In this document: in pieces, positions 28,948 through 46,885 of the stretch | How the letters are laid out: the number at the start of each line of letters is the position of its first letter | Numbering within the stretch: the stretch's first letter is position 1 | Source: Bdellovibrionota bacterium | GTDB lineage: Bacteria; Bdellovibrionota_C; UBA2361; OMII01 | DNA length: 51,530 bases | Assembly (NCBI GenBank): GCA_044237895.1 | Contig: JBIIEK010000002.1 | Location: 1-51,530, forward strand | Reading direction: 5' to 3' | Program-made: the position numbers and the translations under genes | Notes under the pieces: generated by a model | What the model saw: only the letters and a program-made list of their open reading frames with translations | Databases searched by the model: none | What the model was told of the DNA's origin: nothing

Positions 28948-30462
28948 TTAGAATGCGTTTATTCTCTCTTTTACCACCTCAAGAGCTCTGTCGATGCTCA
29001 CGCGGTCCTGCTTAGTTGTGTCGCGATCTCGGATCGTCACCGTGTTGTCCTGAAGTGTTTGGTGATCGATCGTCAGGCAGTATGGCGTGCCTACCTCGTC
29101 GTGGCGAGCGTAACGCTTGCCGATCGATTGCTGTTCATCGTAGCTGGCGTTGATTCCCGCTTTGTAAAAATCGGCCACGATCTTTCGACCGACATCCGGT
29201 AGTCCGTCCTTCTTAACGAGCGGAAGTACTGCAACTTTGAAGGGCGCGAGACGGGGATGAAGCTTCAGAAGAACTCGGGTTTTTGTTTGGCCGTCTGCGT
29301 CAACGCCTTCCTCTTCTGCGTACGCGTCGCATAGGTATGCAAGGCACGCGCGTGTGAGTCCGGCAGCGGGCTCGATGACGTAAGGAACGTATCGAACGCC
29401 GGGCTTTCCAGTCGTTGGATCGATCTTTTGTTGGTCGAAGTAGCTAAGCTTAACACCTGACTCCTCCGCATGCTTGCTCAGGTCGTAGTCTGTGCGCGAA
29501 GCGACACCTTCGAGTTCATCCCATCCCCAAGGATAGTTGTAGTCGATGTCGTAGCAGTCGTCTGCGTAATGAGCGAGCTCGTCCGCTTCGTGTTGACGGA
29601 GTCGGAATGCAGCTTTGTTGTTCGCGTATCGCTGCCACCACGACATTCGAGTTTCGGTCCAGTACTTGAGCCACTCCTTCTGAGTTCCTGGCTCGCAGAA
29701 GTACTCCATCTCCATCTGTTCAAACTCGCATGTGCGGAAGATGAACTTTTCAGTGGTAACTTCATTTCGGAACGATTTGCCCTGTTGAGCGATACCGAAG
29801 GGTACCTTCATCGACATCGTTTGCTGCACGTTCATAAACTGAACGAACATCGCCTGGGCTGTCTCGGGGCGAAGGTATATGGCACTCGAGCGCACAGCCT
29901 CCTCCAGTTTTTCCCGAAGCTCCGCTCGTGAGAGCTCTTTGCCTTGGATCTCTGAGAGGAAATTATCGAGGGGATCTACCGGACCGATCGAGGTCTTGAA
30001 CATGAGGTTAAACTGGCGCTCATCCGAGAGTAGTGAGCTGCTGCAGTGAGGACACACGTATCCGCACGTACCAACAGTGCCGGCTGTTTTCTCTCCACTT
30101 GTTTTGCCACCCTTGACCCAGGTAATGGCGGTTCCTGGCTCCATCTGCGGTGCTTTGTCAGCGCGGAAGCGCTCCTTGCAGTTCAAGCAGTCGACGAGGG
30201 GGTCTGAGAATCCAGCCAAGTGCCCGCTCGCCTTCCAGACGCTCGGATGCATCATAATTGAAGCGTCGATACCAACGACGTCCTCACGCTCATGAACCAT
30301 GAACTTCCACCACTCCGCGGCGATGTTGCGCTTAAGTTCTACACCAAGGGGACCGTAATCGTAGGCGCTCTTTAGCCCGCCGTAGATCTCGCTGCTTTGG
30401 AAGATGAATCCGCGTCGTTTGGTAAGTGACACGATCTTGTTGAGGGTATCGTTTGAAGTCAT
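28948..30462 (-). CDS. glyQS: Glycine--tRNA ligase (homodimeric class II, GlyQS type)
   Basis: Contains RRGFIFQSSEIYGG, LRPETAQAMFVQF and SFRNE.T...FIFRTCEFEQMEMEYF, plus a C-terminal anticodon-binding domain. Length is 504 aa. Confidence 0.95.
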   Translation of the reverse strand: MTSNDTLNKIVSLTKRRGFIFQSSEIYGGLKSAYDYGPLGVELKRNIAAEWWKFMVHEREDVVGIDASIMMHPSVWKASGHLAGFSDPLVDCLNCKERFRADKAPQMEPGTAITWVKGGKTSGEKTAGTVGTCGYVCPHCSSSLLSDERQFNLMFKTSIGPVDPLDNFLSEIQGKELSRAELREKLEEAVRSSAIYLRPETAQAMFVQFMNVQQTMSMKVPFGIAQQGKSFRNEVTTEKFIFRTCEFEQMEMEYFCEPGTQKEWLKYWTETRMSWWQRYANNKAAFRLRQHEADELAHYADDCYDIDYNYPWGWDELEGVASRTDYDLSKHAEESGVKLSYFDQQKIDPTTGKPGVRYVPYVIEPAAGLTRACLAYLCDAYAEEEGVDADGQTKTRVLLKLHPRLAPFKVAVLPLVKKDGLPDVGRKIVADFYKAGINASYDEQQSIGKRYARHDEVGTPYCLTIDHQTLQDNTVTIRDRDTTKQDRVSIDRALEVVKERINAF

Positions 30463-31198: not shown

Positions 31199-32281
31199 TT
31201 ACGCCGCTCTCTCAACGAGCTGGTATGTGGTGGTTCGCTCTTGCGGAGTTAGGCCTGCCGCTCGAATGAGGTGTTGGATCTCGCTCGTATCGAGAGCGTC
31301 GGGCGAGTGAGATCCTGCCATATGGTAAATCTTCTCTTCAGTCACCGTGCCGTCGATATCATTAGCTCCGCAGAGGAGCGCGGTCTGGGCCGTCTTTATC
31401 CCGAGCATCACCCAGTACGCCTTCACGTGAGGGATGTTGTCTAGCATAAGGCGACTCACTGAGATAACCCGTAGGTCATCAATGGCTGTTGGTGCAGGGA
31501 GCCTCTCCATTCGATTTCCCTCGTTGTGAAAAGCAAGGGGGATGAATACCTGGAAGCCGTTTGTGTCATCCTGAAGGTCGCGAAGTCGGATCATGTGGTC
31601 CACGCGCTCTTCGATCGTTTCTATCGTTCCGTAGAGCATCGTGCAGTTGCTCTTAAGACCGAGGTTGTGCGCCGCACGGTGAGCATCAAGCCACTCTTCT
31701 GCGGTAGCTTTGTCCCGACAGATCTTCTTTCTCACCCGGTCGCTGAATATTTCAGCGCCCCCACCGGGCATTGAGCCGAGCCCTGCATCCTTCAGCAGTT
31801 TCAATACGTCGGTATAGGTCATCGAATACTTTTGCGCGAAATAGTGGATCTCCACCGCCGTAAAGGCCTTGATATGAAGGGCGGGAAACTCCTTTCGAAT
31901 CATTCTGAGGAGGTTTGGATAATACTCGAACTCCAGGTCTGGATTGAGTCCATTCACGATGTGAATCTCGGTCATCCCGACCTTGTAGCGGTCCCGAATC
32001 CATTTTTCAGCGTCCTCGACGGACATCGTGTATGCTTGGGGCATCCCCGTTTTTAGCCGCGCAAATGAGCAGAAGAGGCAGCTTGCTTCGCAGACGTTCG
32101 TTGAGTTGAGGTGCAGGTTCCAGTTGTAGTACGTGGTGGTTCCGTGGAGTTTCAGGCGCACGGAGTGGGCCAGCCGCGCTACGGCAAGGACGTCAGGGTG
32201 CTGAAAGAGGGAGCATCCATCTTCAAGCGAGAGACGCTCGCCACGTTCGACCTTCTTTTCAATACTCTCAAAGCTTGTCAC
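31199..32281 (-). CDS. mqnE: Radical SAM menaquinone (futalosine-pathway) enzyme, most like aminodeoxyfutalosine synthase MqnE; MqnC is not excluded
   Basis: Contains the CxxxCxxC cluster NSTNVCEASCLFCSFA, EIHIVNGLNP, GGGAEIF and FQVFIPLAFHNEGN, a CofH/MqnE-type pattern. Neighbouring quinone genes support the call. Confidence 0.78.
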   Translation of the reverse strand: MTSFESIEKKVERGERLSLEDGCSLFQHPDVLAVARLAHSVRLKLHGTTTYYNWNLHLNSTNVCEASCLFCSFARLKTGMPQAYTMSVEDAEKWIRDRYKVGMTEIHIVNGLNPDLEFEYYPNLLRMIRKEFPALHIKAFTAVEIHYFAQKYSMTYTDVLKLLKDAGLGSMPGGGAEIFSDRVRKKICRDKATAEEWLDAHRAAHNLGLKSNCTMLYGTIETIEERVDHMIRLRDLQDDTNGFQVFIPLAFHNEGNRMERLPAPTAIDDLRVISVSRLMLDNIPHVKAYWVMLGIKTAQTALLCGANDIDGTVTEEKIYHMAGSHSPDALDTSEIQHLIRAAGLTPQERTTTYQLVERAA

Positions 32282-33098
32282 TCGCGCTACTCCAGGAAGC
32301 GAATACCATGCAGGCGCTCATAATAATCAAAAAGAGGATGTAAATACCAGCAGCGCCTTTAATGGTTTCAGAAGGGATCGTTTGCGGCGATAGCGCGCGC
32401 ATTACCACCCGACGAGCCGCGAGGAGGGCGGCATAGGTGATTACGTACATCGGAGAGAGCTGATACGCGAGAGCCATCGTGGCGATAATGATAGGCCCCC
32501 CACACACAGCTATTCGATAGAGGGGCACAACCACCCGTGATGATGAAATAGCGGCGAAGGCGGCGCTGTACCAGGATGCTTCAACTGCTCCAAGCGAGAG
32601 GCCGAGGGCGATGGAGCATACGACGCTCTGCCAATGGAGCGTGGAGAGAGCTGAGAGGAAGGTTGTCAGGGAGAGCAATGAGTGTGCACCTATCGCGGCT
32701 AAAAAAGCTATCGTCGGTCGGCCGTTCTCCCATCCTGAGCGAGACATGCCTCGCAGCGAGAGCGAGGCAAGCATCAGTAAGAATACGCTCTGGGTTACAT
32801 AGCTTCGGAAGTACTGGAGCATGATCAGGGTCAGGATACCGCACAGGAGTGACACGATGAGGTAACCGTTCGTTTGCGCGCTTCGGGTTGCTTTTGCTTT
32901 TAGGTAGAGGATCATCGCGCCCTCCACCATATTCCAGGTGACCACCAGCACGAGGCTAATCAGGGAGGTCTGGATAAACAGTGCTCCTAGAGTGGGATCG
33001 CTGGGGATTATTGGGGCTATCGCAGCCGGCGCAGCCAGGGGAGATAGTCGAAGAAAAGCGAAAAGAGGGGGCTCCCAGAGCCTTCGAGAGGATGTCAT
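32268..33098 (-). CDS. Hypothetical polytopic membrane protein, translationally coupled to the mqnE-like gene
   Basis: 276 aa with about 8 hydrophobic helices. Its 3' end overlaps the downstream mqnE-like start by 14 nt. No recognisable motif. Confidence 0.5.
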   Translation of the reverse strand: MTSSRRLWEPPLFAFLRLSPLAAPAAIAPIIPSDPTLGALFIQTSLISLVLVVTWNMVEGAMILYLKAKATRSAQTNGYLIVSLLCGILTLIMLQYFRSYVTQSVFLLMLASLSLRGMSRSGWENGRPTIAFLAAIGAHSLLSLTTFLSALSTLHWQSVVCSIALGLSLGAVEASWYSAAFAAISSSRVVVPLYRIAVCGGPIIIATMALAYQLSPMYVITYAALLAARRVVMRALSPQTIPSETIKGAAGIYILFLIIMSACMVFASWSSASDKL

Positions 33099-33226: not shown

Positions 33227-33976
33227 ATGTGGGCTTACTCTAGCCCCATGGAACAGGTAACCGCTGACATGGCTACGCTTGATCGACCCACATCGACTGG
33301 GTCAGTGCGTACTATGTTTGATCGGATAGCGCCTACCTACGACAAGCTCAACTGGTTATTAAGCCTTGGTGTTAATCGATTGTGGGAGCGAAAGCTCGTA
33401 CGAAAGTTGCCAAAAGCCCCCGGTGGCTTGTGTCTCGATGCATGTACTGGAACGGGCGCTCTTGTTCCGCGACTTGCCCCTCATTTTCGTGGGGTGGTTG
33501 CAGTTGATATCTCGCCGCAGATGCTCTCGAGAGGTCGAAAGCGATGTCAGGGTATCGACGGGACCGCGTGGATCGAATCTGACGCACAAGATCTCCCGTT
33601 TGCCGACGAATCTTTCAATGCCGTCTCCGTTTCATACGGAATCAGGAATCTTCCCTCTCCCGAGACAGGTCTTCGAGAGCTCCACCGAGTGTGCGCTACT
33701 GGAGGAACGATCGGAGTTCTTGAGTTCGGGCAGCCAACCCTCCCTATTTGGAAGGACATCTTCAAGGTATACGCGAAACATATCATTCCTGCGGTGGGAG
33801 AGTACTTCTCAGGAGAGCGTGGCGCGTACGAATACCTTCCACGTACCGCAGCGGCTTTTCCATGTGGCGCCGCCTTTGAAGAGCTCTTAAAGACGTCAGG
33901 ATGGACGCCTCGGGAGACCGTGTCCCTTTGCGGAGGCATCGCCTACATCTATATTGCTGATAAGCTTCCTGCGTAG
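33227..33976 (+). CDS. ubiE: Demethylmenaquinone/ubiquinone C-methyltransferase (UbiE/MenG)
   Basis: Contains VRTMFDRIAPTYDKLN, SAM motif CLDACTGTGAL, FNAVSVSYGIRNL and GGIAYIY. Confidence 0.88.
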   Translation: MWAYSSPMEQVTADMATLDRPTSTGSVRTMFDRIAPTYDKLNWLLSLGVNRLWERKLVRKLPKAPGGLCLDACTGTGALVPRLAPHFRGVVAVDISPQMLSRGRKRCQGIDGTAWIESDAQDLPFADESFNAVSVSYGIRNLPSPETGLRELHRVCATGGTIGVLEFGQPTLPIWKDIFKVYAKHIIPAVGEYFSGERGAYEYLPRTAAAFPCGAAFEELLKTSGWTPRETVSLCGGIAYIYIADKLPA

Positions 33977-34010: not shown

Positions 34011-34736
34011 ATGCACATCCGGATGCCGTCGCTTCGGTGGATGAGCAAGGCCCAGCGTGCTACGATACTGGGGAATGTTTGTATAAAGGCTCTGCAAAAG
34101 CTCGATGAGGGATGCGTGACTAAGGTAGCCACCGATCAGGTATGGGTAGTCGGAGTGACTGGGGCGAGTGGTGTTCGTTACGCCCTTCGCCTTTTACAGG
34201 TGCTGCCATCGCTCGTGCGTGAGGTTCACGTCGTGTTCTCTGACGCCGCTCTTCGGGTGCTTCACGATGAGGAAGGGGTTGCCATAAATCCATCATCGCT
34301 CTCCGCCGAGAGGCTGCTCGGCATCGAAGCCTCGAACGTTACCTTCTACAATCCCCGAGATATCGGCGCTCGCATCGCGTCTGGTTCTATGCTTACCACC
34401 GGTATGGTCGTCATTCCGTGTTCAATGGCGACACTTGGAGCGATAGCTCATGGTATTCCAACACATCTCGTCCACCGAGCCGCGGATGTGGCTATGAAAG
34501 AGGGTCGGCCGTTGATAGTGGTGCCACGGGAAACGCCCCTTTCTCCGATTCACCTGGAGAATATGTTAAAGCTCAGCAAATACGGTGTACGGATCGTGCC
34601 TGCGATGCCCGCGTTCTATCACCGTCCCAAGAGCGTCGAGGATATGATCGATCAGTTCGTCATGAAGGTGCTCGATAGCATGGGCGTCCCTCACTCCCTC
34701 GGTTCTCGTTGGAAAGAGCCGAAGACGGAGTCGTGA
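34011..34736 (+). CDS. ubiX: UbiX-family flavin prenyltransferase (MqnL-like)
   Basis: Contains VVGVTGASGVRYALRLLQVL, MVVIPCSMATLGAIAHG and LIVVPRETPLS. The N-terminal roughly 40 aa of the ORF are probably not translated, so the true start is likely downstream. Confidence 0.86.
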   Translation: MHIRMPSLRWMSKAQRATILGNVCIKALQKLDEGCVTKVATDQVWVVGVTGASGVRYALRLLQVLPSLVREVHVVFSDAALRVLHDEEGVAINPSSLSAERLLGIEASNVTFYNPRDIGARIASGSMLTTGMVVIPCSMATLGAIAHGIPTHLVHRAADVAMKEGRPLIVVPRETPLSPIHLENMLKLSKYGVRIVPAMPAFYHRPKSVEDMIDQFVMKVLDSMGVPHSLGSRWKEPKTES

Positions 34737-34737
34737 G

Positions 34738-35595
34738 ATGGGGTTCACTAAGCAGGTCGTAACGTGGGGGAGCCTCGTAAAGTTTTCCCACACCATCTTC
34801 GCACTTCCTTTTGCGCTCATTATGGTGGTGCTCGTAAGTCGAGAGAGATCTCTCTCCGTCCTAAGCCTTGTGACGCTTATTGTGTGCATCGTCTCCGCAC
34901 GTACCGCAGCGATGGGTTTTAATAGATTAGTCGATGTCGAGATAGACAAGGAGAATCCCCGTACCAGCAACCGCGAGATGCCTCGGGGTCTCGTGACGAA
35001 TCGTGAGGTTATCGGGCTGGTGGCAGTGGCGTGCGTAGTGTTTATGGCAGGCTCGGCGCTTTTGGGCTTGCACTGTCTTGTGTTGGCTCCCGTCGTACTC
35101 GTGGTCTTGCTCGGATATTCCTACGTAAAACGGTTCTCCTCTCTTTGCCACCTTATTCTCGGGGTCGCGTTAGCCCTCGCTCCAGGAGGTGTATGGTACG
35201 CACTCACCGCTGAGTGGTCGTGGCGACCGGTGCCGCTCATGGGAGCGGTCGCTTTGTGGGTTGCTGGGTTTGATATCTTGTACAGTTGTCAGGACGAGGA
35301 GTTTGATAGAGTGTCGGGACTCTTTAGCGTTCCGAGTGTCGTCGGGCTCGTATGGGCGATTCGAATAGCCACGATCCTTCACCTAGGGGCCGTAGCAATG
35401 CTTCTATGGAGTGGGCTCCTCTTTAATGTGGGCCTGACGTATTACCTAGGCGTCGCGCTCTTTGGGGGGCTTCTTCTGAGCCAGTATCTTGCAATCGCTC
35501 GCCATGGCACTTCGTGCATCGACCAGGTGTTTTTTACTCGCAACGGCGCGGCGAGCATCCTCCTCCTTCTGGCCGTTGTGATTGATGCCTACTGA
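34738..35595 (+). CDS. UbiA-family aromatic polyprenyltransferase (MqnP-like candidate)
   Basis: Contains NRLVDVEIDKENPRT (NxxxDxxxD) and a second Asp-rich motif, YSCQDEEFDRVSG. About 8 TMs. The ATG lies 1 nt after the ubiX stop. Confidence 0.88.
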   Translation: MGFTKQVVTWGSLVKFSHTIFALPFALIMVVLVSRERSLSVLSLVTLIVCIVSARTAAMGFNRLVDVEIDKENPRTSNREMPRGLVTNREVIGLVAVACVVFMAGSALLGLHCLVLAPVVLVVLLGYSYVKRFSSLCHLILGVALALAPGGVWYALTAEWSWRPVPLMGAVALWVAGFDILYSCQDEEFDRVSGLFSVPSVVGLVWAIRIATILHLGAVAMLLWSGLLFNVGLTYYLGVALFGGLLLSQYLAIARHGTSCIDQVFFTRNGAASILLLLAVVIDAY

Positions 35596-35912
35596 TCGAC
35601 GCTTCCCTGCATGGCCCCGTTGAAAATGGTATTCGCATCCGTTCGAATGTGTCGCTATCGGTTCTTTCGTTTGGGGTGAACTTTTTCAGTGCGCCAGGTG
35701 TGCTACCTTCTGACGTTGCGACGCTACCGTGTCGAGGGGTAACAGTTTTGAGCAGGGTGGCGTCAGTGATTTTCGGGTCATTAATGTAGCGTTTGGCAAA
35801 AACTTCATCGGCGTGTCGAAGTCTGCGATACCTCGAGTATGTTTCTCCCCAAAGATGACGCTCTCGCCTCGTGAAGAGGGGCGTAGATAAAAGGGGATTT
35901 TTTTAAGAGTCG

Positions 35913-38027
35913 TTGGTGGATCCAAAAAGCGCGCAAAGGGATGTGACGGATCAGCACGGGGGGATGGTTCCTCTAAGCGCACGTACACTTGGAGTATCAC
36001 CCGAAGAGTTGTCTCGGGAGATCCCCGGAGAGTATCTTACCGTGCGATTCGCTGAAAAAATGGTTGAGCCGGCCCCTCTCGTAACGAAGCTTGAACTTGA
36101 GGTTTCTCACCCCAAACTTCCCGGGCAGAGCAGGACATTCGATATCTCCTACCTCCTCCATGAGGGGTACCGAGCGTCGCCATCCACTATACGGCAGATC
36201 GTTGATCCCTCTTTCTCCTCAGAGAGTAGAGCCGATGCGTTGCGCACCCTTCTCGTGGATATCTGTAATGTGCGGGGAAATTTTCCGCCGGACCGACGCG
36301 AAGTCTCTGTAAGCCCGTGTCGGGATGATATCATTGACGAGCTTGAACCAACCTTCGAGATTCGAGGACAGTTGTTGACCGAGCTTGGCGATGTCGTGCG
36401 CGGGTACAGTCGGCGCGCGGTTACGGTTGTTCGAAATCACAAACCGCTCGTGCAGTTTTTGCTTATTGAGCAGGAGGGCGTTGTTCGTCACGCGAGTATC
36501 CTTCTTCATCCCTCGCACATTGAGTGGCCGCTTCTTGATCGAAACGGTAGATACGTCACTGATCAGACGGTTGATGCGACTCTACACGATTTCACCCATC
36601 AGCTACGACAAACCCGGCAAGCTCCGATGTTGCGGATAATAGAGTCCTTGGGGCGAGAGGTTCAGGACAGGGTCGCTCAAAATGAGGATGCCCCTGAAGC
36701 GCTGAGGCGACGCGCCTTTGTTCAAGAGGCGTGGACGGCATGCCGAGATGATCGAGTATGGACTCCTGAGTTTGGTGCGCCGCCGATCTCACCAGTGTTG
36801 GCGCCTCCGGGATACGGATACACCGCGCGTGAACTGCCGGATGGACGGGCGTTCTGGATCTATCACGATATTCAAGGAAGCGGAGATGTGATTCGAATCG
36901 CGGGGTACTCCCGTTCAGGCAGCTTGTTCTCGGTGCAGTTGCACTATCCGCCACATATGTCATGGCGAGTGGCGATGCTCTGTGAGCGGATAGTGTCATC
37001 TGGGGGATGGCCTGACTTTTCGCCGGCGCTCGAGGTGCTACGGACATCCAAGAAGAGTGGGGTCTCCCTCCATTATTCGCCCGGGGCGGATCAATATCCC
37101 GCTGCCGTAAACGCGTTACTGGATATTGCCCGTGGTTGTGAAGGCAATCGAAATATTGGACGCGGAGTATGGTCCGATGAAGACGGTCGGATGGAGGGCT
37201 ATTTCGCGGATATGGTGACCGAGTTCGTCAAGGGACGGCTTCCTATTCATGGATCCATCGGTGGTCGAAATCCCGCGAGCTCCTGGGTTTTCCACGCCAT
37301 GCTGGATGAGGATCTGAACGGCACTGTTCTTTTCGTCAATTCTCTGAGGGGAAGTTTGACGTTGCGTTCGATGCTTGGATTTGATGTGGAATCGCGACGT
37401 CAAGATTTACTCGAAGTGCTCAACTCGATGTACGATTCTCCCGGGGAATTTATCGAAAAGTTCTACGGAATAGGGTCCTTTGAAGTGACCGCTCATAATC
37501 TTCCGCGCCGTGGAGAGGTGGAATTGAGCGGGGCGTTGAACACCATAGCGGTATCCATGTGGAAGGGGATAAAGGCAGCCGGCCACTATTTTAGTATTGA
37601 TTTGTGTGGTCACGCCCCATGGAGCTCGCAACGACTTATATCTGGGGACTGGGCTCTCTCTCTGGAATCGGTGCACTCCGTGAGAGGCGCTCTTCCCTAT
37701 CTGCTAACGTGCATCGTGCACGAGGGTGGCGTGAGGGAGATCCTCGTTAGTTACGGAGAACGAGGCTTTCTCGGGGGGCTGTTGGGCAAGCAGATCGTTC
37801 CGAATGGAGGCTCTGGTTTCTTCTCGGAGCATGAGGTCGGAGCAATCGTTCGCTCGCTAGCGGACCGTTCCCCGGACGCCAAGGGGGTTTCGGTCAGTGA
37901 TAGGGTTCTGGCGATCTGTCCGCATGCGCACGTGTCATGGCTATCCAGCTTGAGGCGATTCGATCCCCAATTCAAGCAACGAGATCTCCTCTCCCGAATC
38001 GTTCGGTGGTTTCAAAATATCTGGTAG
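35913..38027 (+). CDS. Large orphan cytoplasmic protein (704 aa), no recognisable domain
   Basis: A long uninterrupted ORF with no signal peptide or TM and no motif I can assign. The ORF opens at a TTG. An ATG at 35964 preceded by a G-run is an alternative start. Confidence 0.55.
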   Translation: MVDPKSAQRDVTDQHGGMVPLSARTLGVSPEELSREIPGEYLTVRFAEKMVEPAPLVTKLELEVSHPKLPGQSRTFDISYLLHEGYRASPSTIRQIVDPSFSSESRADALRTLLVDICNVRGNFPPDRREVSVSPCRDDIIDELEPTFEIRGQLLTELGDVVRGYSRRAVTVVRNHKPLVQFLLIEQEGVVRHASILLHPSHIEWPLLDRNGRYVTDQTVDATLHDFTHQLRQTRQAPMLRIIESLGREVQDRVAQNEDAPEALRRRAFVQEAWTACRDDRVWTPEFGAPPISPVLAPPGYGYTARELPDGRAFWIYHDIQGSGDVIRIAGYSRSGSLFSVQLHYPPHMSWRVAMLCERIVSSGGWPDFSPALEVLRTSKKSGVSLHYSPGADQYPAAVNALLDIARGCEGNRNIGRGVWSDEDGRMEGYFADMVTEFVKGRLPIHGSIGGRNPASSWVFHAMLDEDLNGTVLFVNSLRGSLTLRSMLGFDVESRRQDLLEVLNSMYDSPGEFIEKFYGIGSFEVTAHNLPRRGEVELSGALNTIAVSMWKGIKAAGHYFSIDLCGHAPWSSQRLISGDWALSLESVHSVRGALPYLLTCIVHEGGVREILVSYGERGFLGGLLGKQIVPNGGSGFFSEHEVGAIVRSLADRSPDAKGVSVSDRVLAICPHAHVSWLSSLRRFDPQFKQRDLLSRIVRWFQNIW

Positions 38028-38030
38028 AGG

Positions 38031-38795
38031 TTAGGCGAGTATATCCCGAGAAAGCGCAGGGCCGCTCTTCCACGGTAAGCCTTCAGGGTACCGCTCGAGC
38101 ATCACCCTGTTTCCGTTGGCGAAGAAATCTAGCTTTACGGAGGCGGCGGTCTCTCCAACGCGGTAGTTTGTGGAATAGAGCCCGGGGGTTCCAAAGCTCG
38201 TATTCCAGTCTACCAATTTATTACAGATAATGGCGTCTGGTGTGTGCGTAGAATCGTCCCGAAACTGCTTATACCAAATCGGTGAGAGTGAAATCGCATC
38301 TGAACGTCTTAAGAGGTAGCAGTTTGTGTCGACGTGTCTAAAATCTCCGATGCAAGCCTTCCAGATACCGAGATTCTCGCAGTCGTCGTTGATGAGAAAA
38401 TGTCCGTGATGGTCAACTATCTTTCGCAGGGAGTACGCCCAATCAAGATTGTGTTCGGTCATTAGCTTTACGAGAGAGGAGAAGTGATTCGGGTCGTGCC
38501 AGTTGTCCTCGTCAAGGAAAGCGATCAGCTCTCCCCGAGCGAGGTATGCTGAGGCGCCGAACACCCGATGACCGTTAAACCTATCAAGGCCTGTGGGGTG
38601 AGGCAGGGTGATCGTGTGCACGTTGCTCTTTGGTAACGTGATCTGATCCAGTAGTGCGTACGTAGCCTGCTCCCGCTCCTTGCCGTCGATAAAGATATAG
38701 TAGTCGATGTCGGAGTAGTCTTGACGGAGGATTCCCTCCACTGCCTGCTTAAGGAGTGGAGATCCGGTGGTTGGTGTTATTACCGAGATGCGCAT
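38031..38795 (-). CDS. Family 2 glycosyltransferase (GT-A fold)
   Basis: Contains MRISVITPTTG, ILRQDY and YYIFIDG, plus the DxD-type FLDEDNW. Soluble, 254 aa. Confidence 0.8.
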   Translation of the reverse strand: MRISVITPTTGSPLLKQAVEGILRQDYSDIDYYIFIDGKEREQATYALLDQITLPKSNVHTITLPHPTGLDRFNGHRVFGASAYLARGELIAFLDEDNWHDPNHFSSLVKLMTEHNLDWAYSLRKIVDHHGHFLINDDCENLGIWKACIGDFRHVDTNCYLLRRSDAISLSPIWYKQFRDDSTHTPDAIICNKLVDWNTSFGTPGLYSTNYRVGETAASVKLDFFANGNRVMLERYPEGLPWKSGPALSRDILA

Positions 38796-38868
38796 GGATT
38801 GTACCTTTTAACTGGCTTTGAAGGTATCTCTGTTTAGTCTAGGGGGCTAGTCCAGGCAATCGCGACGA

Positions 38869-39129
38869 CTACGTGCGAAATCCTAACGGAAGCAAAACTC
38901 CTCGAAGCTCATTAAATTCCTCGTGGTGATATGCGCCGGTCGTTCCATCATCGTGTCGCACGATCCAAAGGTCCCCTCTGTGAGCGGGAATGAAGTCCTC
39001 CACAACTCCTTGACAATTGCCACGGCGGTCACCCAGCTGGTCACGGCTGATCGCCGAGGCCGCGAGGTCTACGAGCAGTGGACGGGTTTTAACTCGAATT
39101 CCGGTATGCGTGTCTTCAAGATTCATGGA
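38869..39129 (-). CDS. Small hypothetical protein
   Basis: 86 aa from the ATG at 39129, which is preceded by GAGGG at 6 nt. The ORF opens at 39165. It lies between the GT-C and GT2 genes on the same strand. Confidence 0.4.
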   Translation of the reverse strand, partial: SMNLEDTHTGIRVKTRPLLVDLAASAISRDQLGDRRGNCQGVVEDFIPAHRGDLWIVRHDDGTTGAYHHEEFNELRGVLLPLGFRT

Positions 39130-39259
39130 ATACCCTCGAAAGTAATACGATCGGAATGATTGCATTTTCGTAGGGCGCTCGCCACAGAGATTGCGGGATG
39201 GATTCTGCTCGTGTGGGTGTAACGGCGATGTTTAGAGAGCTTTAAGCGCCTCTGGAGGC

Positions 39260-40795
39260 TCATTTGCTTATGTGAGGCACGGAGTCGAGGATCGGAGGAA
39301 GCTCTGGATAGGTAACTGCCACCAACCACCACTTCCTTGCGCCGAGGGGCGGAATTCGTTGGACCTCTTGCCATCCGACAGGGAGATTCGAGAGGGATTC
39401 CTCTCGCAGCAGTATCGCGGTTCTCGAGAGCGGTGTTAGGCCTTGGGGAGCTTTTACGACCTCTAGGTTCGGCTTGAGCATTCCTCGATAGATCCCCTCT
39501 ACGTTGAAGCGGCCGCGGATAGGAGTGGTGCGTCCGCTCAGAGCGTTGTCTACGAGAATGAAACGTTCAAAGTCCCTCTTAAGCTGCTCTGTCATCCGAT
39601 CGAGGGGGATGCGGTCCGTATCCGAGCGAACCTCCCCTAGTGCCCGGTTAACTGCGCGCGAATAAGAACGGGCAGTCGTGACGACGAGAAGGGTCGCTAG
39701 TACTGCGGTTGCCGCACGCATCTTTGGTAGGCGCTTGATGGTTTGGAGTACGTGTACACAACCAAGTACGGCGATCATGCAAACAAAGGGCATAAAGGGG
39801 TTCAGGTACCAAGGGGCTTTTGAAGACGAACAGGAGTAAGCGAGAACGGGTAGAGCCCCCCACAGAAGGAGGAAGCGGAACGTGGGAGATCTGCGCGCTC
39901 CCATGATCGCTCCCACGACGCCGGCCCCGAGGATCCAACGCGGAGCTACCGCTGCGCGAACGAAAAGGTACCATCCATAGTAGAGGGGCTTGTCAGAGTT
40001 GTGTCCCTCAAATCCTGAGAGGGCGCGATTGAATATCTCAACACCGATGAATGAGTTCAGGCCCCGCATGCCACCCGCAGTCCACACACACACCACATAC
40101 GCTAAAAAGGTAATCACGGGGGGGAGCACTAGGCGCGCAAGTTGACGAAGTGTGGGTTTGCGATCGCTACACGTTACGAGGGTTAGCACGGCACAGAGGA
40201 GGGGGACAAAACCTGCCACGCTCTTGGTCAGGATTGCGAGAGCGCAGAGAATACCTGCCCGAGATAGATTTCGATCTGAGCCTCCTGTTTGACACCATCT
40301 CCATGAGTAGATCGCCATTCCAAGCGTAAAAATGGTAAGCAGCCCATCAAGGACTGCGTGTCTAAAGCTGTGCTGGGCGATAACCCATTCCGGCGCACCA
40401 AGGAGTAGAAAGCCGACGATAAGAGAGGCTGGAATGCTGCGTGATAGGTGAAGGGTCAGCACGGCTGAAAGAAACACAGCGAGGATCCCCAGAGTTGCGT
40501 CGAATGCTCGATAGCTCCAATTGCTTTCGCCGAGTAGAACCGGGACGAGCGATCCGAGCCAAAATTTGAGTGGGGGCTTTTCAAACGATGCCGCGGAGCC
40601 ATGCTTTACGGGGAAGAGATCTCCGTTTTGAATAACACCCTGAGTAATCCGAACGTAGATCACCTCATCTGAGGTTACGGACACCGAGGAATTTCCGAGG
40701 TTCCAAAAGAAAAGAGTCGCCGCAAGAGCGGCCAAGAGGAGCCCACCCACAAGGCAGAGTGCGCGGGATATCTTAGTTCTAAAAAAATCACTCAT
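39260..40795 (-). CDS. GT-C-fold membrane glycosyltransferase (ArnT/PMT-like, GT39/GT83)
   Basis: 511 aa, about 11-12 TMs. The first extracytoplasmic loop carries the DE motif (VTSDEVIYVR) followed by KPPLKFWL. A short C-terminal soluble domain is present. Confidence 0.75.
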   Translation of the reverse strand: MSDFFRTKISRALCLVGGLLLAALAATLFFWNLGNSSVSVTSDEVIYVRITQGVIQNGDLFPVKHGSAASFEKPPLKFWLGSLVPVLLGESNWSYRAFDATLGILAVFLSAVLTLHLSRSIPASLIVGFLLLGAPEWVIAQHSFRHAVLDGLLTIFTLGMAIYSWRWCQTGGSDRNLSRAGILCALAILTKSVAGFVPLLCAVLTLVTCSDRKPTLRQLARLVLPPVITFLAYVVCVWTAGGMRGLNSFIGVEIFNRALSGFEGHNSDKPLYYGWYLFVRAAVAPRWILGAGVVGAIMGARRSPTFRFLLLWGALPVLAYSCSSSKAPWYLNPFMPFVCMIAVLGCVHVLQTIKRLPKMRAATAVLATLLVVTTARSYSRAVNRALGEVRSDTDRIPLDRMTEQLKRDFERFILVDNALSGRTTPIRGRFNVEGIYRGMLKPNLEVVKAPQGLTPLSRTAILLREESLSNLPVGWQEVQRIPPLGARKWWLVAVTYPELPPILDSVPHISK

Positions 40796-40999
40796 AAGAG
40801 GAGGCGTAGCGGGACGCTTTCATAAGATACGACGATACTGATACGGGGAGCAATGTGGGGGAAGTTCTGGAGAGAGTAAGGATGGAAGTGGAATCCGAAT
40901 AGAACATTTCTTGACGACAGCGTGAGCTGGAGTCAAAAACCTCTGGGTTAGAGAGACGTCCTAAACGAAAAACCACAACCAGGCTTGCTCTCTAGGATA

Positions 41000-41431
41000 T
41001 CAGGCCTGAGAGCTAGAGGGAGCCGTGGCGCTCTGTTCGGGTGTTGCGCGTTTAGAAGGGATCTTCTTATACGCCGCAACCGCCGTCCGGATCGCCAGGT
41101 ATGCAACTGCGCCAACAAAGGCAACGGTCGCACTACGGAACCCCAAAGCAACCGACGCCGTCACCCACTCGATGATGAGGGGGAGAGACTGCAATACGGC
41201 TGCCAGGCCCGAGATTGTCGCGCTCACACCGAGCACTCCTCCTACCACCAGCACCGTTTTTGGTGAGGTGGAGGCGAGATGCTCAAGGGGCACAGCTGCG
41301 GTCTCGATCAGTGCCCAAACTTTGTTGAACACCTTTTTGGTGGCTTCTTTCATCTGTTTTGTCTTTCTAGTCACCTGATTATGGTTGAGGCAGGAGACGA
41401 CCTCAGTAGGAGAAACCTTTTGGATTTCCAC
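41000..41431 (-). CDS. Hypothetical membrane protein
   Basis: 143 aa with two or three hydrophobic helices in the C-terminal half. It is upstream of, and co-directional with, the GT-C gene. Confidence 0.4.
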   Translation of the reverse strand: MEIQKVSPTEVVSCLNHNQVTRKTKQMKEATKKVFNKVWALIETAAVPLEHLASTSPKTVLVVGGVLGVSATISGLAAVLQSLPLIIEWVTASVALGFRSATVAFVGAVAYLAIRTAVAAYKKIPSKRATPEQSATAPSSSQA

Positions 41432-41636
41432 TTCCGACTAAGATATGGGTGTTTTTAGCTATAACGTATCGTACGGAGTCGAGGTCCGTAACCTTCTGTA
41501 ACCCATATTCTTTTTTGCGAGGTTTTGCCGCATACGCAGTCGGTAAAATGCCGAGGCGCGCGCTACATAGGGGCGCTCATGCTCGAGGATTGCTCCTTTT
41601 CAGGCCCTCTGACCCCGTGTCACTATCGATACAGTT

Positions 41637-42278
41637 ATGAAGAAGAATAGAGCGGTTTTTACCCTGGCCACACCGGACTATGAGCCGGAGTTGTGTGAGA
41701 TTACCTTTCCCCTTATTAGGAAATATGCGGATAGGCTCAAGGCGGATTTCGTTCGTATCGAGACTCGGAAGTTTCCAGATTATCCGATTACCTACGAGAG
41801 GCCTCAGATCCACGAACTGGGAAAAGATAACGAGTGGAATGTGTGTATCGATCCCGATACCTTGATTCACCCCGATATCGACGATTTTACTCAGTGGTTT
41901 CCACAAGACAACGTCGGTAACTGGGCTTTTTTCGACGTGCGACAACATTTCGATGTCGCCGATGATAAATATTTTGCGAGGGACGGGAGGTTTTACGGCA
42001 TAGTAGATAGCCTCGTTGCGACATCGTGGCTAACCCATGACCTGTGGACTCCGCTTCCTGAAACCAATGCTCAGCTAGAGAGAAAGATTCACGATAAGGA
42101 GTGGGTTCGACGAATGTCAGAGTATGCGATATCGCGTAATCTCGCTCGGTACGGGATGAAGATTCAAGGGCTGCTCGCCAACACCAAGCATATGTATCAC
42201 CTCGGCGCGACAAGCTATAATATCGAGAGGCCCGCGGATGAGGCGATTCGGATCCTTAAGGAGTGGGGTCTTCGATAA
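41637..42278 (+). CDS. Hypothetical protein with a DxD-like motif (possible GT-A nucleotide-sugar transferase)
   Basis: 213 aa, soluble. AVFTLATPDY and NVCIDPDTLIHPD resemble the N-terminal strand and DxD of GT8-like enzymes. The assignment is weak. Confidence 0.4.
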   Translation: MKKNRAVFTLATPDYEPELCEITFPLIRKYADRLKADFVRIETRKFPDYPITYERPQIHELGKDNEWNVCIDPDTLIHPDIDDFTQWFPQDNVGNWAFFDVRQHFDVADDKYFARDGRFYGIVDSLVATSWLTHDLWTPLPETNAQLERKIHDKEWVRRMSEYAISRNLARYGMKIQGLLANTKHMYHLGATSYNIERPADEAIRILKEWGLR

Positions 42279-42283
42279 AGCGA

Positions 42284-44416
42284 TTACTTTGAGGGTGCGG
42301 ACGAGAGCTCAAAGGCCTCTAGAGCAACATCCTCTCGAACGAAGAGCGCTGGATATGATTCTCCGCAAAGGCGGGGGCTCTGCGCGTTTAGGACCTCTTT
42401 ATCGCCTGATCCGGCAACGACTTTATTTCCCACACATCTAATCCACAACGGTCCTCCTTGACCGAGCGTTTGTGGAGGTATCTTCACTGAGGTTATCTCT
42501 TTCACAGCTGACTCGGATAGATCGACCAGAGTGAACTCGACTTCGGCGGGCTTCACGTGAGCGAGGAGGCCTACGCCGGTACACTGGCTCTTCGAGAGGC
42601 TTCGATCGCAAAGAGCGACTCCTACCTCGACGGGAAGGATGTTGAAGTGAATGTTGAACCGCCCGCGGGTTTCATATCCTAGGCGACTCGGATCCCATGT
42701 TATGCGAAATCCGTCTTTGGCGTTAGCACGTGAAGGGAGTGAGACGATAGCGGATCCGACTTGATACCAGTCCTTTTGTCCCTCCTGCCACGAGAGCGCC
42801 TTAATTTTATTGTTCAGGTCGAATACCGGTAGTCGAGCGCCCCATCGATTTATCCACTCCTCATACGCGGTGCGTTCGTCAAGGTATGTGGTCCCGGACC
42901 ACACTGTGTGCTCTACAAAGTGGTCGAGGCGTATATAGCTGGGCGCTGGGATGAAGAGGTCGGGGGTTTGATCGGCGAACGCGGGCCACAGGGCGGAGAG
43001 GCGACCCTTATATGCCGAGAATTGTCCGTCGATGAGCCAGAAGCGGTTCCCTTGAAGGTAGGTCTTCAGGAGATGAAGCGGACCGGTTCCCATGTGAATA
43101 ATCGCGGAAGGGCACTTGAGGCGTCGAGCGTAATACGTTGGTCCCACATCGAGGATAGTGATGACCCCCGTATTGTATTGAGCGCACGTCTCGCGAAATG
43201 CTACCTCAAAGGGATTCTCGCGGCCCATTACGTCTTCTTGGATGCTCTTATAGAGACCGAATGTGGTGGGGATCGCGACGAGGCTCGCCACGACGGCGGT
43301 TCGAAGCGTTTTGGTTCCCACTATCCCGCTATTTGAAAGGGCCAGAAGGAAACGAGCTGCGGCTAGAGCGAGGAACGGCTGCGCGACGGTTAATCCGCGA
43401 ACGGCGGTAACGCTGAGGATGCTGAACATCCCGAAGGGGATCAGAAGTATCGCGGCAAGTTGAAGATCCTCAGAGCGGAATCTTCCACGGAAGATAAGGA
43501 GCGGAAGACAAAGGATCCAGAGGGCGACAAGAGCAAGTGTAAAGGGATTATCTAAATCGAATAGACTGAGGATGAGGTTAAGGCTGTCCTTGATGTGGAG
43601 AGAGGGAAGAAGTCCGGATCCTCCACCGAATGTTTTACCTCCGATATGCTTGTATTGCTCGGAGAAGACGAAGAAGTATCCCTTCGAGATCGGGTATACG
43701 AGGCGCATGATCACATCGAGAGTGATGAGGCTACCCACGAATCCAGCCAGGTGTATGAGCAACTTTGGAGCGGTAGCAAATCGGATCCCCTCTCGGATGA
43801 TTATAACGAGCGATGGAAGCACGATGCATGAAAGGGCTCGATAGTTGGAGGCGAGTGAGAGCCCCAATGAGATACCGCTTCCGAGAAAGAGCAGGACGGT
43901 TCTTTTCGAGAGCTTCTCCCGAGCGGAGGGAAGCATGATGAGCAGATAGCTCAGCGCTAGAAAAAAGAAGCCCGGGGTGTCTAGAGCGACCGTACGCGAG
44001 AAGAGGTTTTGCATCGGGCTTACGGCGCCTAAGATGAGCGTAATGAGGGCGGCAGTTGATCCGTACATTCGATAGGCGAGGTAGCTCACAAGGAGTACCC
44101 CAAGAAGCCCCATGAACGCGGTGGGATACATAATTGCTTGGGGTGAATCTCCAAACACGGCTATCGGAAGACCAAAGATAAAGGAGGTAACGGGGCACGC
44201 TTTAAAGTCGATGTAGAACTCCCGTTTCTGACCATTCAGGTGGCGCGCCATCGAGGTGGCAGAGTCTACGAGCCATCCTTCATCGAACTCGACGAACCCC
44301 TGACTATCGACCCAAGCGAACCGTAGGAGTACCGCTACAAGAAGCGCCGCCAGGCACGCGAGTACAAATGGTTTCGGCCGAACGAATTGTTGAAGGGTTT
44401 TGGGGCTGTTAGACAT
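42284..44416 (-). CDS. Large GT-C-fold membrane glycosyltransferase with a roughly 300-aa C-terminal extracytoplasmic domain
   Basis: 710 aa. The first loop carries a DE motif (FVEFDEGWLVDS), followed by about 12 TMs in the first roughly 400 aa. The C-terminal soluble domain has no recognisable family. Confidence 0.7.
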   Translation of the reverse strand: MSNSPKTLQQFVRPKPFVLACLAALLVAVLLRFAWVDSQGFVEFDEGWLVDSATSMARHLNGQKREFYIDFKACPVTSFIFGLPIAVFGDSPQAIMYPTAFMGLLGVLLVSYLAYRMYGSTAALITLILGAVSPMQNLFSRTVALDTPGFFFLALSYLLIMLPSAREKLSKRTVLLFLGSGISLGLSLASNYRALSCIVLPSLVIIIREGIRFATAPKLLIHLAGFVGSLITLDVIMRLVYPISKGYFFVFSEQYKHIGGKTFGGGSGLLPSLHIKDSLNLILSLFDLDNPFTLALVALWILCLPLLIFRGRFRSEDLQLAAILLIPFGMFSILSVTAVRGLTVAQPFLALAAARFLLALSNSGIVGTKTLRTAVVASLVAIPTTFGLYKSIQEDVMGRENPFEVAFRETCAQYNTGVITILDVGPTYYARRLKCPSAIIHMGTGPLHLLKTYLQGNRFWLIDGQFSAYKGRLSALWPAFADQTPDLFIPAPSYIRLDHFVEHTVWSGTTYLDERTAYEEWINRWGARLPVFDLNNKIKALSWQEGQKDWYQVGSAIVSLPSRANAKDGFRITWDPSRLGYETRGRFNIHFNILPVEVGVALCDRSLSKSQCTGVGLLAHVKPAEVEFTLVDLSESAVKEITSVKIPPQTLGQGGPLWIRCVGNKVVAGSGDKEVLNAQSPRLCGESYPALFVREDVALEAFELSSAPSK

Positions 44417-44723
44417 GCTTGAATACTCACCGATTTTACCCCCTGCCGCAACGGAGTTTTCCCGGCGCGATTACGTGAGAGGCTGAAGGTGAAGTCAAAG
44501 CTGAAGCGAGTAAAGGTCACTCCAACTAACGAGCTCCTCTTCGTTCGAATCTTTGAGGGATTGTCGGTAGCTCTGTGCTACTCGATTCGCGTGCGGCCGA
44601 GCTTTTACCGAGAATATTCGTCGGTGTTCGATCCACATGTACGTTCTGTGCTTCGGCCGTGCGCGCGGCTCGTTTCAGCTCCCCGGAGTTGCTCGTCCAC
44701 AGTAAGTACGGTAGGAACTTCGC

Positions 44724-45515
44724 ATGCGCTACAAGCTCGGAATCTCCACCTGTCCAAATGATACGTTCATGTTTCACGCTCTTTTGACGGGTCGGGTGCA
44801 ATGTGAAGGTTTTGACCTCGATATCGAGCTTCTTGATGTGCAACAGTTAAATGAAGGTCTCGCTCGAGGGGATTATGCCTTTTCTAAAGCGAGCTGCTTT
44901 GGGGCGGTCCTCCTTCGCGAGCGGTATGAGCTTTGTAGTTCAGGGGCCGCTCTCGGGTACGGTGTCGGCCCACTCGTTCTGGCGCGCAAGGGTGCACCAC
45001 CGCTCTCGGCGGAGGCGAACGTTCTAGCCCCTGGAAACCTGACCACCGCATGTATGCTTTTCCGACATTTCTTTCCGCAAGCGACATCCATATCCCAGTT
45101 GGTTTTTTCGGAGATTATGCCTGCGCTTGAGCGGGCAGATGCCGATTACGGGATCGTGATTCATGAGGGGCGCTTTACGTACCAAGAGAGCGGACTCTCC
45201 TTGGTGGCAGACCTTGGTGATCTTTGGGAGAAGAGGTATAACGTCCCGCTGCCGCTAGGGTGCATCGTCGCCGACCGCGCGCTATCGGCGGAACATCGAC
45301 GAGCGTTCTGCTCTGCTGTCCGCCGTTCTATTGAATATGGATACGCGCACCGAGAGGAGGCCCTTCCAACTATGAGGCGATACGCTCAAGAGCTCGGAGA
45401 TGAGGTTATTTGGAAGCATGTTGAGCTCTACGTGAATGAATGGAGCCTCGATTTGGGTGACAAGGGCAGGGAAGCCTTCGCAATCTTGGAGAGCGTCGCG
45501 CTCAGCTCCCTGTAA
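44724..45515 (+). CDS. mqnD: 1,4-dihydroxy-6-naphthoate synthase (futalosine pathway)
   Basis: The N-terminal LGISTCPNDTFMFHALLTG is the MqnD-type SPCPNDTF signature, as opposed to the MqnA IPYLN pattern. Length is 263 aa. Confidence 0.8.
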   Translation: MRYKLGISTCPNDTFMFHALLTGRVQCEGFDLDIELLDVQQLNEGLARGDYAFSKASCFGAVLLRERYELCSSGAALGYGVGPLVLARKGAPPLSAEANVLAPGNLTTACMLFRHFFPQATSISQLVFSEIMPALERADADYGIVIHEGRFTYQESGLSLVADLGDLWEKRYNVPLPLGCIVADRALSAEHRRAFCSAVRRSIEYGYAHREEALPTMRRYAQELGDEVIWKHVELYVNEWSLDLGDKGREAFAILESVALSSL

Positions 45516-46084: not shown

Positions 46085-46885
46085 TTAGGCGCGAATCGTT
46101 ATGTGAGAACCGGGTCGGGGCTTACGGTATGTATGCCAGGCGGATCCTCCGCGCTGGAATATCTCCCAATATTTTCGTGAGTGCCCGCTGGATCCTGGGG
46201 AGAATGCGATGTCGCCCTCTTGCACGTTGAAGCTGCCTGATGCGACCGTCGCGGACATCTGGACGTCGTTAATCGTTATCGTTACTCGCTGACCAGGTTT
46301 GAGCCCCTCGAGTTCCGCGTCTCCCTCACGGATCGTTGTCTTCAGATTTCCGAATGAATCGATGTATCCGATAGCAGAGCGAGGCGGAGGCGCGATTACG
46401 GCGTGTGGATCGAGGCGCTCAATGAGAAACTCCGTCTCTCCGCGAGCCGCTTGACCAACGAGTTGAGGGAAATTATCGCGAGAGCGGAACTGAGACCCCG
46501 CAACGTCGACCTTGATCTTCCAGAGCTCCTTAAGCTCATCCCTTACGAACGAGAGTGAGTAGCCTGAGTTGACCGCCATAACACCGACGCCGCTGTGAAG
46601 TATTCCATAGAGGAAGCCCTCGCCCTCGTTATTGGTGCGGGCCTCTCGCCGGTCCTTTCGGGGGGCGCAATTGGCGTATATCAGGGTCTCTCTCGGACGT
46701 AGCTTTTCAGATTGGTTGCCGAGTTGGGCGACGACGAATCCGGTCGATACCGTGTCGAAGCTGGCGACTGAGGTGATATGCCAGTGATAATCGGCTGGTA
46801 TTTGGGCGGCCATGGCGGAGACCACTTCGGCGCAGGCGAGGTCTCCGGGGGCATAGTCCATAACGAGATGAATCAGCTTTTGCAT
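46085..46885 (-). CDS. SAM hydroxide adenosyltransferase family protein (DUF62, SAM hydrolase-like), divergent
   Basis: The layout resembles DUF62: N-terminal LVMDYAPGD, SQFRSRDNFP (compare FHGRD.FAP), GYIDSFGNLKTTI (compare ID.FGN..TNI), and GSSGH...EIF near the C-terminus. Confidence 0.6.
   Translation of the reverse strand: MQKLIHLVMDYAPGDLACAEVVSAMAAQIPADYHWHITSVASFDTVSTGFVVAQLGNQSEKLRPRETLIYANCAPRKDRREARTNNEGEGFLYGILHSGVGVMAVNSGYSLSFVRDELKELWKIKVDVAGSQFRSRDNFPQLVGQAARGETEFLIERLDPHAVIAPPPRSAIGYIDSFGNLKTTIREGDAELEGLKPGQRVTITINDVQMSATVASGSFNVQEGDIAFSPGSSGHSRKYWEIFQRGGSAWHTYRKPRPGSHITIRA

Follow-up and report, generated by a model that had tools for sequence, protein, structure and literature searches.

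The late steps of the futalosine pathway of menaquinone synthesis, and the organisation of this pathway, are only partly established experimentally. Described futalosine clusters contain mqnA-E, mqnP and UbiX-/UbiD-like genes; UbiA-, UbiD- and UbiX-like genes are present in every Mqn genome analysed, and the UbiX-family gene of these clusters has been named MqnM (PMC4746308). Three-component periplasmic glycosylation systems have been described as GtrA/GtrB/Gtr*, ArnC/ArnEF/ArnT, CsbB/GtcA/YfhO and C. youngae ORF15/14/12 (PMC11127046). Here I describe a 9-kb block (positions 35596-44723) of a 51,530-nucleotide stretch of DNA from a Bdellovibrionota bacterium (contig JBIIEK010000002.1 of assembly GCA_044237895.1; hereafter the window), in which glycosyltransferase genes lie among menaquinone genes. 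A preliminary description had proposed that the block is a single, undescribed envelope glycosylation system made of eight genes unrelated to their menaquinone flanks. I find that it is probably a composite, of a menaquinone-linked gene for a 704-residue protein without a family or fold match (hereafter the orphan) and of a glycosyltransferase island added later, which would operate by an ArnT-like periplasmic glycosylation mechanism.

Seven conserved genes lie between the UbiA/MqnP-like gene and mqnD:

35913-38027, plus strand: the orphan, 704 amino acids, cytoplasmic; no family or fold match and no transmembrane segment

38031-38795, minus strand: GT2_254, soluble 254-amino-acid glycosyltransferase of family 2 (GT2), island core; PF00535, E-value 5.5e-12; no transmembrane segment

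38869-39165, minus strand: small soluble protein, open reading frame of 98 amino acids, accessory; no family match

39260-40795, minus strand: GT-C511, ArnT-like GT-C enzyme of 511 amino acids, island core; PF02366 (PMT), E-value 1.2e-10; NCBIfam ArnT, E-value 8.6e-17

41000-41431, minus strand: small membrane protein, open reading frame of 143 amino acids, island core; two hydrophobic helices, hydrophobic region at residues 58-125

41637-42278, plus strand: DxD213, predicted minimal GT-A glycosyltransferase of 213 amino acids, island core; AlphaFold2 model with a predicted local distance difference test score (pLDDT) of 93.5 and a predicted template-modelling score (pTM) of 0.90; invariant D72xD74

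42284-44416, minus strand: GT-C710, PMT_2 GT-C enzyme of 710 amino acids, variable accessory; PF13231, E-value 1.8e-10; hydrophobic segments confined to residues 18-366

All the open reading frames of the preliminary description are present, but its figure of eight exceeds the seven it lists, and the one further reading frame in the block (35686-36000, minus strand) is not conserved. The block proteins were scanned against Pfam and NCBIfam, and those without a family also against PHROGs and PADLOC. Pfam recognises the GT2, PMT/ArnT and PMT_2 enzymes as expected, and has no match for the other four proteins (the orphan, the small soluble protein, the small membrane protein and DxD213). Purifying selection acts on all genes tested, with a ratio of non-synonymous to synonymous substitution rates (dN/dS, computed between the window and locus L008) of 0.02-0.15: 0.02 for MqnE, 0.03 for DxD213, 0.05 for GT2_254, and 0.14 for both GT-C511 and the orphan.

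The menaquinone genes on either side, whose earlier assignments are borne out by TIGR, Pfam and Protein Data Bank (PDB) matches, are the following:

31199-32281, minus strand: mqnE, aminofutalosine synthase; TIGR03700, 487.9 bits against a cut-off of 434.55; Radical_SAM and CofH_C domains

32268-33098, minus strand: conserved polytopic membrane protein of 276 amino acids, no family; 14-bp overlap with the mqnE start

33227-33976, plus strand: ubiE/menG, demethylmenaquinone methyltransferase; PF01209, E-value 4.5e-48; TIGR01934 above cut-off

34011-34736, plus strand: UbiX-family flavin prenyltransferase; PF02441, E-value 1.2e-41; TIGR00421 and NF004685 above cut-offs

34738-35595, plus strand: UbiA-family prenyltransferase, MqnP by context; PF01040, E-value 3.2e-44; TIGR01475 above cut-off

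44724-45515, plus strand: mqnD, 1,4-dihydroxy-6-naphthoate synthase; PF02621, E-value 9.7e-61; best PDB match T. thermophilus MqnD TTHA1568, E-value 1.9e-59

I compared this region with island-bearing loci from four lineages (L004/L005, L006/L008, L007 and GCA_041443065.1, where L008 is a contig of a metagenome-assembled genome labelled 'uncultured delta proteobacterium'), and with mqn-linked loci from three lineages that possess no glycosyltransferase genes (GCA_041445565.1, L092, L093 and L094). In GCA_041445565.1 the order is mqnE, a 271-amino-acid membrane gene, ubiE, ubiX, ubiA, orphan, mqnD, followed by rpsB-tsf-pyrH-frr-uppS, with a gap of 12 bp between orphan and mqnD. This gap is 26 bp in L094, while in both L092 and L093 the orphan stop overlaps the mqnD start by 4 bp. 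From this spacing, the orphan is predicted to be translationally coupled to mqnD in the lineages without glycosyltransferases. The tblastn identities between these loci and the window confirm orthology, at 79% for the SAM_HAT gene (described below), 78% for MqnE, 74-77% for UbiX, 61-63% for MqnD and 27% for the orphan, and the loci are therefore true relatives.

All mqn-linked loci examined have the orphan downstream of mqnP, and it is a conserved member of the mqn operon. Since it lies between mqnP and mqnD in relatives that lack glycosyltransferases, it belongs with the futalosine/menaquinone cluster; the description of the intervening genes as unrelated to this cluster does not hold for it, and is limited to the others. 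The question of whether mqnP and mqnD are neighbours elsewhere receives a divided answer, as the orphan separates them in the relatives without glycosyltransferases (along with one further inserted gene in L093), and the orphan together with the island in the clade of the window. In a tree of the orphan family (neighbour-joining, midpoint-rooted, 21 very divergent members), the island bearers form one clade, and the mqnD-coupled arrangement without glycosyltransferases occupies two separate deep branches. By parsimony, the ancestral order was therefore ubiX-mqnP-orphan-mqnD, with a single insertion of the island.

The island occupies 38031-44416 (6.4 kb), and in the window it separates mqnD from the orphan. 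Its loci, in which gene-by-gene orthology was confirmed by tblastn in the relatives whose DNA was compared, share the order mqnE, membrane protein, ubiE, ubiX, mqnP, orphan, GT2, a variable part, GT-C511, small membrane protein and DxD213. This synteny across four lineages rules out a chance juxtaposition, and holds while the identity of the orphan to that of the window ranges from 84% (L006/L008) through 56% (GCA_041443065.1) and 52% (L007) to 44% (L004/L005). The conserved core consists of GT2_254, GT-C511, the two-helix membrane protein and DxD213; GT-C710, the small soluble protein and other genes of the relatives make up the variable part. L007 also has a GT-C710 orthologue, followed by mqnD, and is the only locus where one was found (62% identical). 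In L006 and L008, a GT2-methyltransferase fusion and a 628-amino-acid polytopic protein stand in place of GT-C710, and in L004 and GCA_041443065.1 unannotated genes for soluble proteins of 641-646 amino acids lie between GT2 and GT-C511. The gene set is thus not obligate, as GT-C710 is replaced in close relatives and the DxD213 and GT2_254 families are widespread without the GT-C enzymes.

The GC content of the island (0.52-0.56), its GC content at third codon positions and its codon usage are equal to those of the flanks, so that the compositional comparison suggested in the preliminary description reveals no difference. Repeats flanking the island are at chance level only, and no tRNA flanks it. 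Because of this match in composition, and the absence of flanking repeats or tRNA, the insertion is regarded as old. The island was seen only in the clade of the window, and I conclude that it is an old insertion between orphan and mqnD in a clade of uncultured freshwater bacteria, and has been kept since.

Of the described systems, the island appears to most resemble the three-component periplasmic glycosylation systems. Like these, it combines cytoplasmic enzymes of the GT-A type and a small membrane protein with a GT-C enzyme whose first periplasmic loop carries an acidic motif; it needs neither Wzx/Wzy nor an ABC exporter, and takes the form of a compact add-on in which the GT-C enzyme varies between strains. 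The differences are considerable, however. The island GT2 lacks membrane helices and does not specifically resemble GtrB, ArnC or DPMS; the small membrane protein has two helices, against four in GtrA/SMR, and matches no family; the island has one more GT-A enzyme, of minimal size, and two GT-C enzymes instead of one; and its setting is a menaquinone operon, not a glycan locus or prophage. Of the three components, the GT-C enzyme is recognised, and the other two, synthase and flippase, are not. In agreement with the preliminary description, the seven genes (35913-44416) have no Pfam or NCBIfam match to Wzx/Wzy, ABC-exporter, nucleotide-sugar, O-antigen or lipid A families, and they do not correspond to a described Arn, PMT or O-antigen locus. 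The term 'undescribed system' is nonetheless overstated, since the combination of GT-A enzymes with an ArnT-family GT-C enzyme follows the logic of known periplasmic glycosylation modules.

In GT-C511 the membrane domain precedes a soluble C-terminal domain of ∼150 amino acids, a domain order shared with ArnT (GT83) from C. metallidurans (PDB 5ezm). In the alignment to 5ezm (E-value 1.1e-6), the signature residues DE, FEKPP (E84/K85), the R270 equivalent and SK.P.Y (Y345) are matched, and four orthologues retain all of them without change. The SDEVIY and FDEGW motifs noted previously in the two GT-C enzymes are present and invariant in orthologues, and together with the PMT and PMT_2 matches and the DE alignment to 5ezm they identify GT-C enzymes with an acidic loop-1 motif. 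In contrast to ArnT, GT-C511 reaches 60.9 bits with the ArnT equivalog model NF009784, whose cut-off is 567 bits; this indicates similarity at the family level only, and the histidines of the ArnT zinc site are not conserved in it. The companion genes of an Arn locus are also missing, with no arnA, arnB, arnC, arnD, arnE or arnF among the block or window proteins scanned.

The PMT match opens a different reading, in which the island would be a PMT-type protein O-glycosylation system whose GT-C enzymes mannosylate secreted or envelope proteins from polyprenyl-phosphate-mannose, as actinobacterial Pmt does. PMT is the best Pfam match of GT-C511, above the gathering threshold (41.8 against 22.7), PMT_2 matches GT-C710, and the loop-1 DE motif is common to PMTs (GT39). 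However, Pfam finds no MIR domain in GT-C511, no Ppm1-like synthase was identified in the island, the best NCBIfam and PDB matches of GT-C511 are ArnT rather than Pmt1/2, and its FEKPP and SK.P.Y motifs match ArnT. I therefore regard PMT-type glycosylation as unlikely, and retain an ArnT-like function for GT-C511. GT-C710, which has a C-terminal soluble domain of ∼340 amino acids, has no PDB sequence match, and no paralogy was detected between it and GT-C511.

The 'DxD protein' of the preliminary description can now be assigned, from its structural model, a GT-A fold with confidence. DxD213 has no Pfam, NCBIfam, PHROG, PADLOC or PDB sequence match, with either a single sequence or a profile, but residues D72 and D74 are invariant in 34 sequences, in keeping with a DxD metal-binding motif. 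Foldseek matches its model to the UGGT catalytic domain, LgtC, B4GalT7, PBCV-1 A64R and glycogenin, at E-values of 1e-4 to 1e-3, with a probability of 1.00 for UGGT, LgtC, B4GalT7 and A64R. It shares a single GT-A domain and a DxD site with A64R and with the retaining enzymes of GT8/GT24 type (LgtC, glycogenin, UGGT), with a template-modelling score of 0.54 to 2p6w; unlike these, it has no sequence-level family membership, and its 213 residues are at the minimal end of the size range. Its identity in relatives is 71-94%. DxD213 relatives occur on 250 metagenomic stretches, and none of the 80 of these loci that were fetched has homologues of GT2_254, GT-C511, GT-C710 or the orphan nearby. Of three distant relatives whose gene neighbourhoods were inspected, two lie in glycan clusters (with GT2, methyltransferase and dTDP-sugar genes), and one does not. 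In L009 (10001-11311) and L011 (9363-10633), distant relatives are present as tandem duplicates in glycan clusters with GT2, Methyltransf_24 and dTDP-sugar genes. Another reading frame of 213 amino acids in the window (23143-23784) was considered as a DxD213 paralogue, and is not one.

GT2_254 is 74-89% identical in island-bearing relatives, and its family comprises at least 791 clusters of GT2 proteins with 235-255 amino acids. By its PDB matches (PglI, SpsA) it is SpsA/PglI-like, and its nearest NCBIfam models, TuaG, PglI and AglG, are far below their cut-offs; no PDB match to GtrB, ArnC or DPMS was obtained at E-values up to 1. It is possible that GT2_254 is a polyprenyl-phosphate sugar synthase without transmembrane helices.

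The sizes given earlier for the two small proteins apply to the longest reading frames, and the true starts are likely further downstream. For the small soluble protein, the start is probably M14 (85 amino acids, 38869-39126), the residue from which conservation begins in L008 and L004. Three of the four lineages with the island possess it. A tblastn search of L007 gave no homologue, the gene calls of GCA_041443065.1 include no small gene at the corresponding position, and there is no Pfam, NCBIfam, PHROG or PADLOC match. The small membrane protein, conserved in L004, L006, L007 and L008, probably starts at M27 (117 amino acids, 41000-41353). It matches no GtrA, SMR or other Pfam or NCBIfam family at E-values up to 0.1, save for a chance-level NCBIfam match to ribulokinase (E-value 0.008), which was discarded. 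A reading as a chlamydial Inc-like protein had no support and was dropped. Outside the island, the one glycan-initiation gene observed in the window encodes a WbaP-like polyprenyl-phosphate hexose-1-phosphate transferase (2898-4382, plus strand; Bac_transf and CoA_binding_3), ∼33 kb upstream.

From these assignments, I propose the following model. The island would have entered once, long ago, a cluster in which the orphan was translationally coupled to mqnD, and would have been retained from then on. Its cytoplasmic GT-A enzymes would make or extend a lipid-linked sugar, with the small membrane protein perhaps taking part in the handling of this donor. On the periplasmic face, the ArnT-like GT-C511 would transfer the sugar from a polyprenyl-phosphate donor to an acceptor in the envelope, and GT-C710 would introduce a second modification that varies between strains. 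The ArnT signature makes lipid A or the lipopolysaccharide core the most likely acceptor. If an ArnT-like enzyme does decorate lipid A or another envelope molecule, this would represent a stripped-down form of periplasmic glycosylation, where a soluble GT2, a minimal GT-A enzyme and a two-helix membrane protein replace the canonical synthase and flippase. It would widen the rules for spotting periplasmic glycosylation in genomes, which is useful but incremental. Since its enzymes come from known families, the island is unusual only to a moderate degree, and the orphan is the more novel lead.

The orphan, correctly described as such at first, is a lineage-restricted, fast-evolving cytoplasmic protein. 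Its family is tiny, with seven homologue clusters among 5.8 billion clustered proteins, and 28 matches to its profile among 1.84 billion representatives, nearly all of ∼700 amino acids. The database gene call is slightly shorter than the reading frame used here (694 amino acids, start at ∼35943). The Pfam, NCBIfam and PHROG scans and the scan for defence systems (PADLOC) returned no match, nor did PDB sequence searches by single sequence or profile, and it contains no hydrophobic segment, either transmembrane or signal-like. AlphaFold2, run with seven sequences, gave a model of moderate quality (pLDDT 70, pTM 0.47) that shows five beta4-alpha modules. Foldseek found nothing at an E-value of 0.001 or below in the PDB and BFVD, and the matches to PUR-repeat, SAS-6 and ARO/CYC proteins were too weak to be used. 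hhalign detected no internal sequence repeat among the five predicted modules. Arg, Gly, Pro and Trp account for most of the residues that are invariant across 21 sequences, and these form no evident catalytic constellation. No paralogy was found to the large unannotated proteins of the islands (641 amino acids in L004, 596 in L007, 628 in L008).

The position of the orphan is the only clue to its function. It is syntenic with mqnE, ubiE, ubiX, mqnP and mqnD, as expected for a gene of a futalosine cluster, but unlike the genes of described clusters it has no homology to a known Mqn, Men or Ubi enzyme (by Pfam, NCBIfam, PDB sequence or fold), is restricted to one bacterial lineage and evolves far faster than the enzymes, retaining 27% identity to the window in the loci without glycosyltransferases, where MqnE keeps 78%. 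Tentatively, the orphan, possibly along with the 276-amino-acid membrane protein, could be a new component of futalosine/menaquinone synthesis with a new fold. It might act as a carrier or scaffold holding hydrophobic prenylated naphthoate intermediates, in a role analogous to that of UbiJ/UbiK or COQ10. It might otherwise be a non-homologous replacement for a step absent from the cluster, in which, as in the rest of the window, no UbiD-like decarboxylase, MqnA, MqnB or MqnC was found. A ∼700-residue protein kept beside mqnD across lineages at ∼25% identity is in any case a concrete and testable candidate for a pathway component.

Several observations weigh against parts of the composite interpretation. 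For the orphan, its subfamily P0007 (L001-L003) is found in a context without mqn genes, which weakens a role strictly dedicated to menaquinone. It is also not adjacent to mqnD in the clade of the window, so tight coupling is not essential, and the tree from which the insertion history is read is a midpoint-rooted neighbour-joining tree of very divergent sequences. For the island, the four transcription units run in differing directions, so that co-regulation is unproven; the ArnT equivalog score of GT-C511 is far below its cut-off, and its zinc-site histidines are lacking; no polyprenyl-phosphate sugar synthase is recognisable in the island, GT2_254 having no transmembrane helix and being closest to elongating GT2 enzymes; and neither Pfam nor NCBIfam reveals a flippase there.

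The same divergent and convergent arrangement of the four transcription units would fit a loose, if syntenic, set of independent glycan-modifying enzymes in a variable hot-spot, with no shared pathway. Gene content varies among close relatives, the DxD213 and GT2_254 families are widespread without GT-C enzymes, and in L093 a separate 638-amino-acid polytopic protein is inserted in the same cluster. The four-gene core nevertheless keeps its order and orientation down to an orphan identity of 44%, and it is strongly constrained, as the dN/dS values of GT2_254 and DxD213 indicate. A loose set is accordingly improbable in my view. That all seven genes, the orphan included, form one undescribed envelope glycosylation system is least credible of all: the orphan does abut GT2_254 (convergent, 3 bp between stop codons) and co-occurs with it in relatives from four lineages, but this proposal is largely refuted by the synteny of at least three lineages where the orphan is mqnD-coupled without any glycosyltransferases, and by its further context in L001-L003, its strand (opposite to GT2, and the same as ubiE-ubiX-mqnP) and its want of a transmembrane or signal-like segment, so that it is not a periplasmic acceptor. 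For genome scanning, the composite interpretation implies that the synteny of relatives should be used to divide an 'inserted block' before its genes are assigned a common function.

Two further genes bear on the orphan and its cluster. The P0007 member of the orphan family, a probable paralogue (37% identical; for example L001 10001-12100), adjoins fumarase, polysaccharide pyruvyl transferase and many unannotated small genes. In L093, the gene between mqnP and the orphan (4792-6708, plus strand) encodes a 638-amino-acid protein with a hydrophobic, membrane-like N-terminus and an N-terminal DDAYI motif, with no Pfam match; the cluster may here have received, independently of the island, another membrane glycosyltransferase-like gene.

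Upstream of the orphan, an alignment of four lineages reveals one conserved non-coding feature:

35647-35715, plus strand: conserved non-coding element, ATGTGTCGnTATCGG ... TGTGnTAC, between mqnP and the orphan

Each of L004-L008 has a single copy of its motif, and L093 and L094, which lack glycosyltransferases, have none. The TGTGnTAC end resembles an extended -10 box, and no conserved RNA fold was found for the element, which looks like a putative promoter or operator. A general promoter and terminator scan gave no more signals than shuffled sequence does. The Rfam scan returned tRNA-His (17475-17550, plus strand) as the sole RNA gene found in the window.

The flank list of the preliminary description omits the 276-amino-acid membrane gene that overlaps the mqnE start. 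The encoded protein has ∼8 hydrophobic segments and no Pfam or NCBIfam match. A family-less gene for 271-297 amino acids is located directly upstream of mqnE in all relatives examined, and tblastn identities of 38-85% establish its homology in those whose DNA was compared. It is the second family-less gene tied to the menaquinone cluster. For the UbiA-family gene (34738-35595), the MqnP exception models also match, below their cut-offs. An internal deletion of ∼190 bp splits the mqnP match of L006 (7452-8113) in two, and no gene is called there, while the gene of the near-identical L008 is intact; L006 has either a pseudogene or an error of assembly at this place.

Other genes of the window touch the menaquinone cluster by position or by family:

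46085-46885, minus strand: DUF62-type S-adenosylmethionine (SAM) hydroxide adenosyltransferase-like gene (SAM_HAT), between mqnD and rpsB

12165-13367, minus strand: adenosine-deaminase-family protein, 400 amino acids, below equivalog cut-offs

28948-30462, minus strand: class II aminoacyl-tRNA synthetase, 504 amino acids, adjoining the menaquinone cluster

In the SAM_HAT gene, only the C-terminal domain matches, barely above the Pfam cut-off. It has 79% identity in L093, and a 266-amino-acid gene is found at the same place in GCA_041445565.1; a link to the SAM-consuming MqnE is possible. The adenosine-deaminase-family protein could be the aminofutalosine deaminase of the MqnE route. The synthetase is of the homodimer-type glycyl-tRNA synthetase, according to the names of its cluster members.

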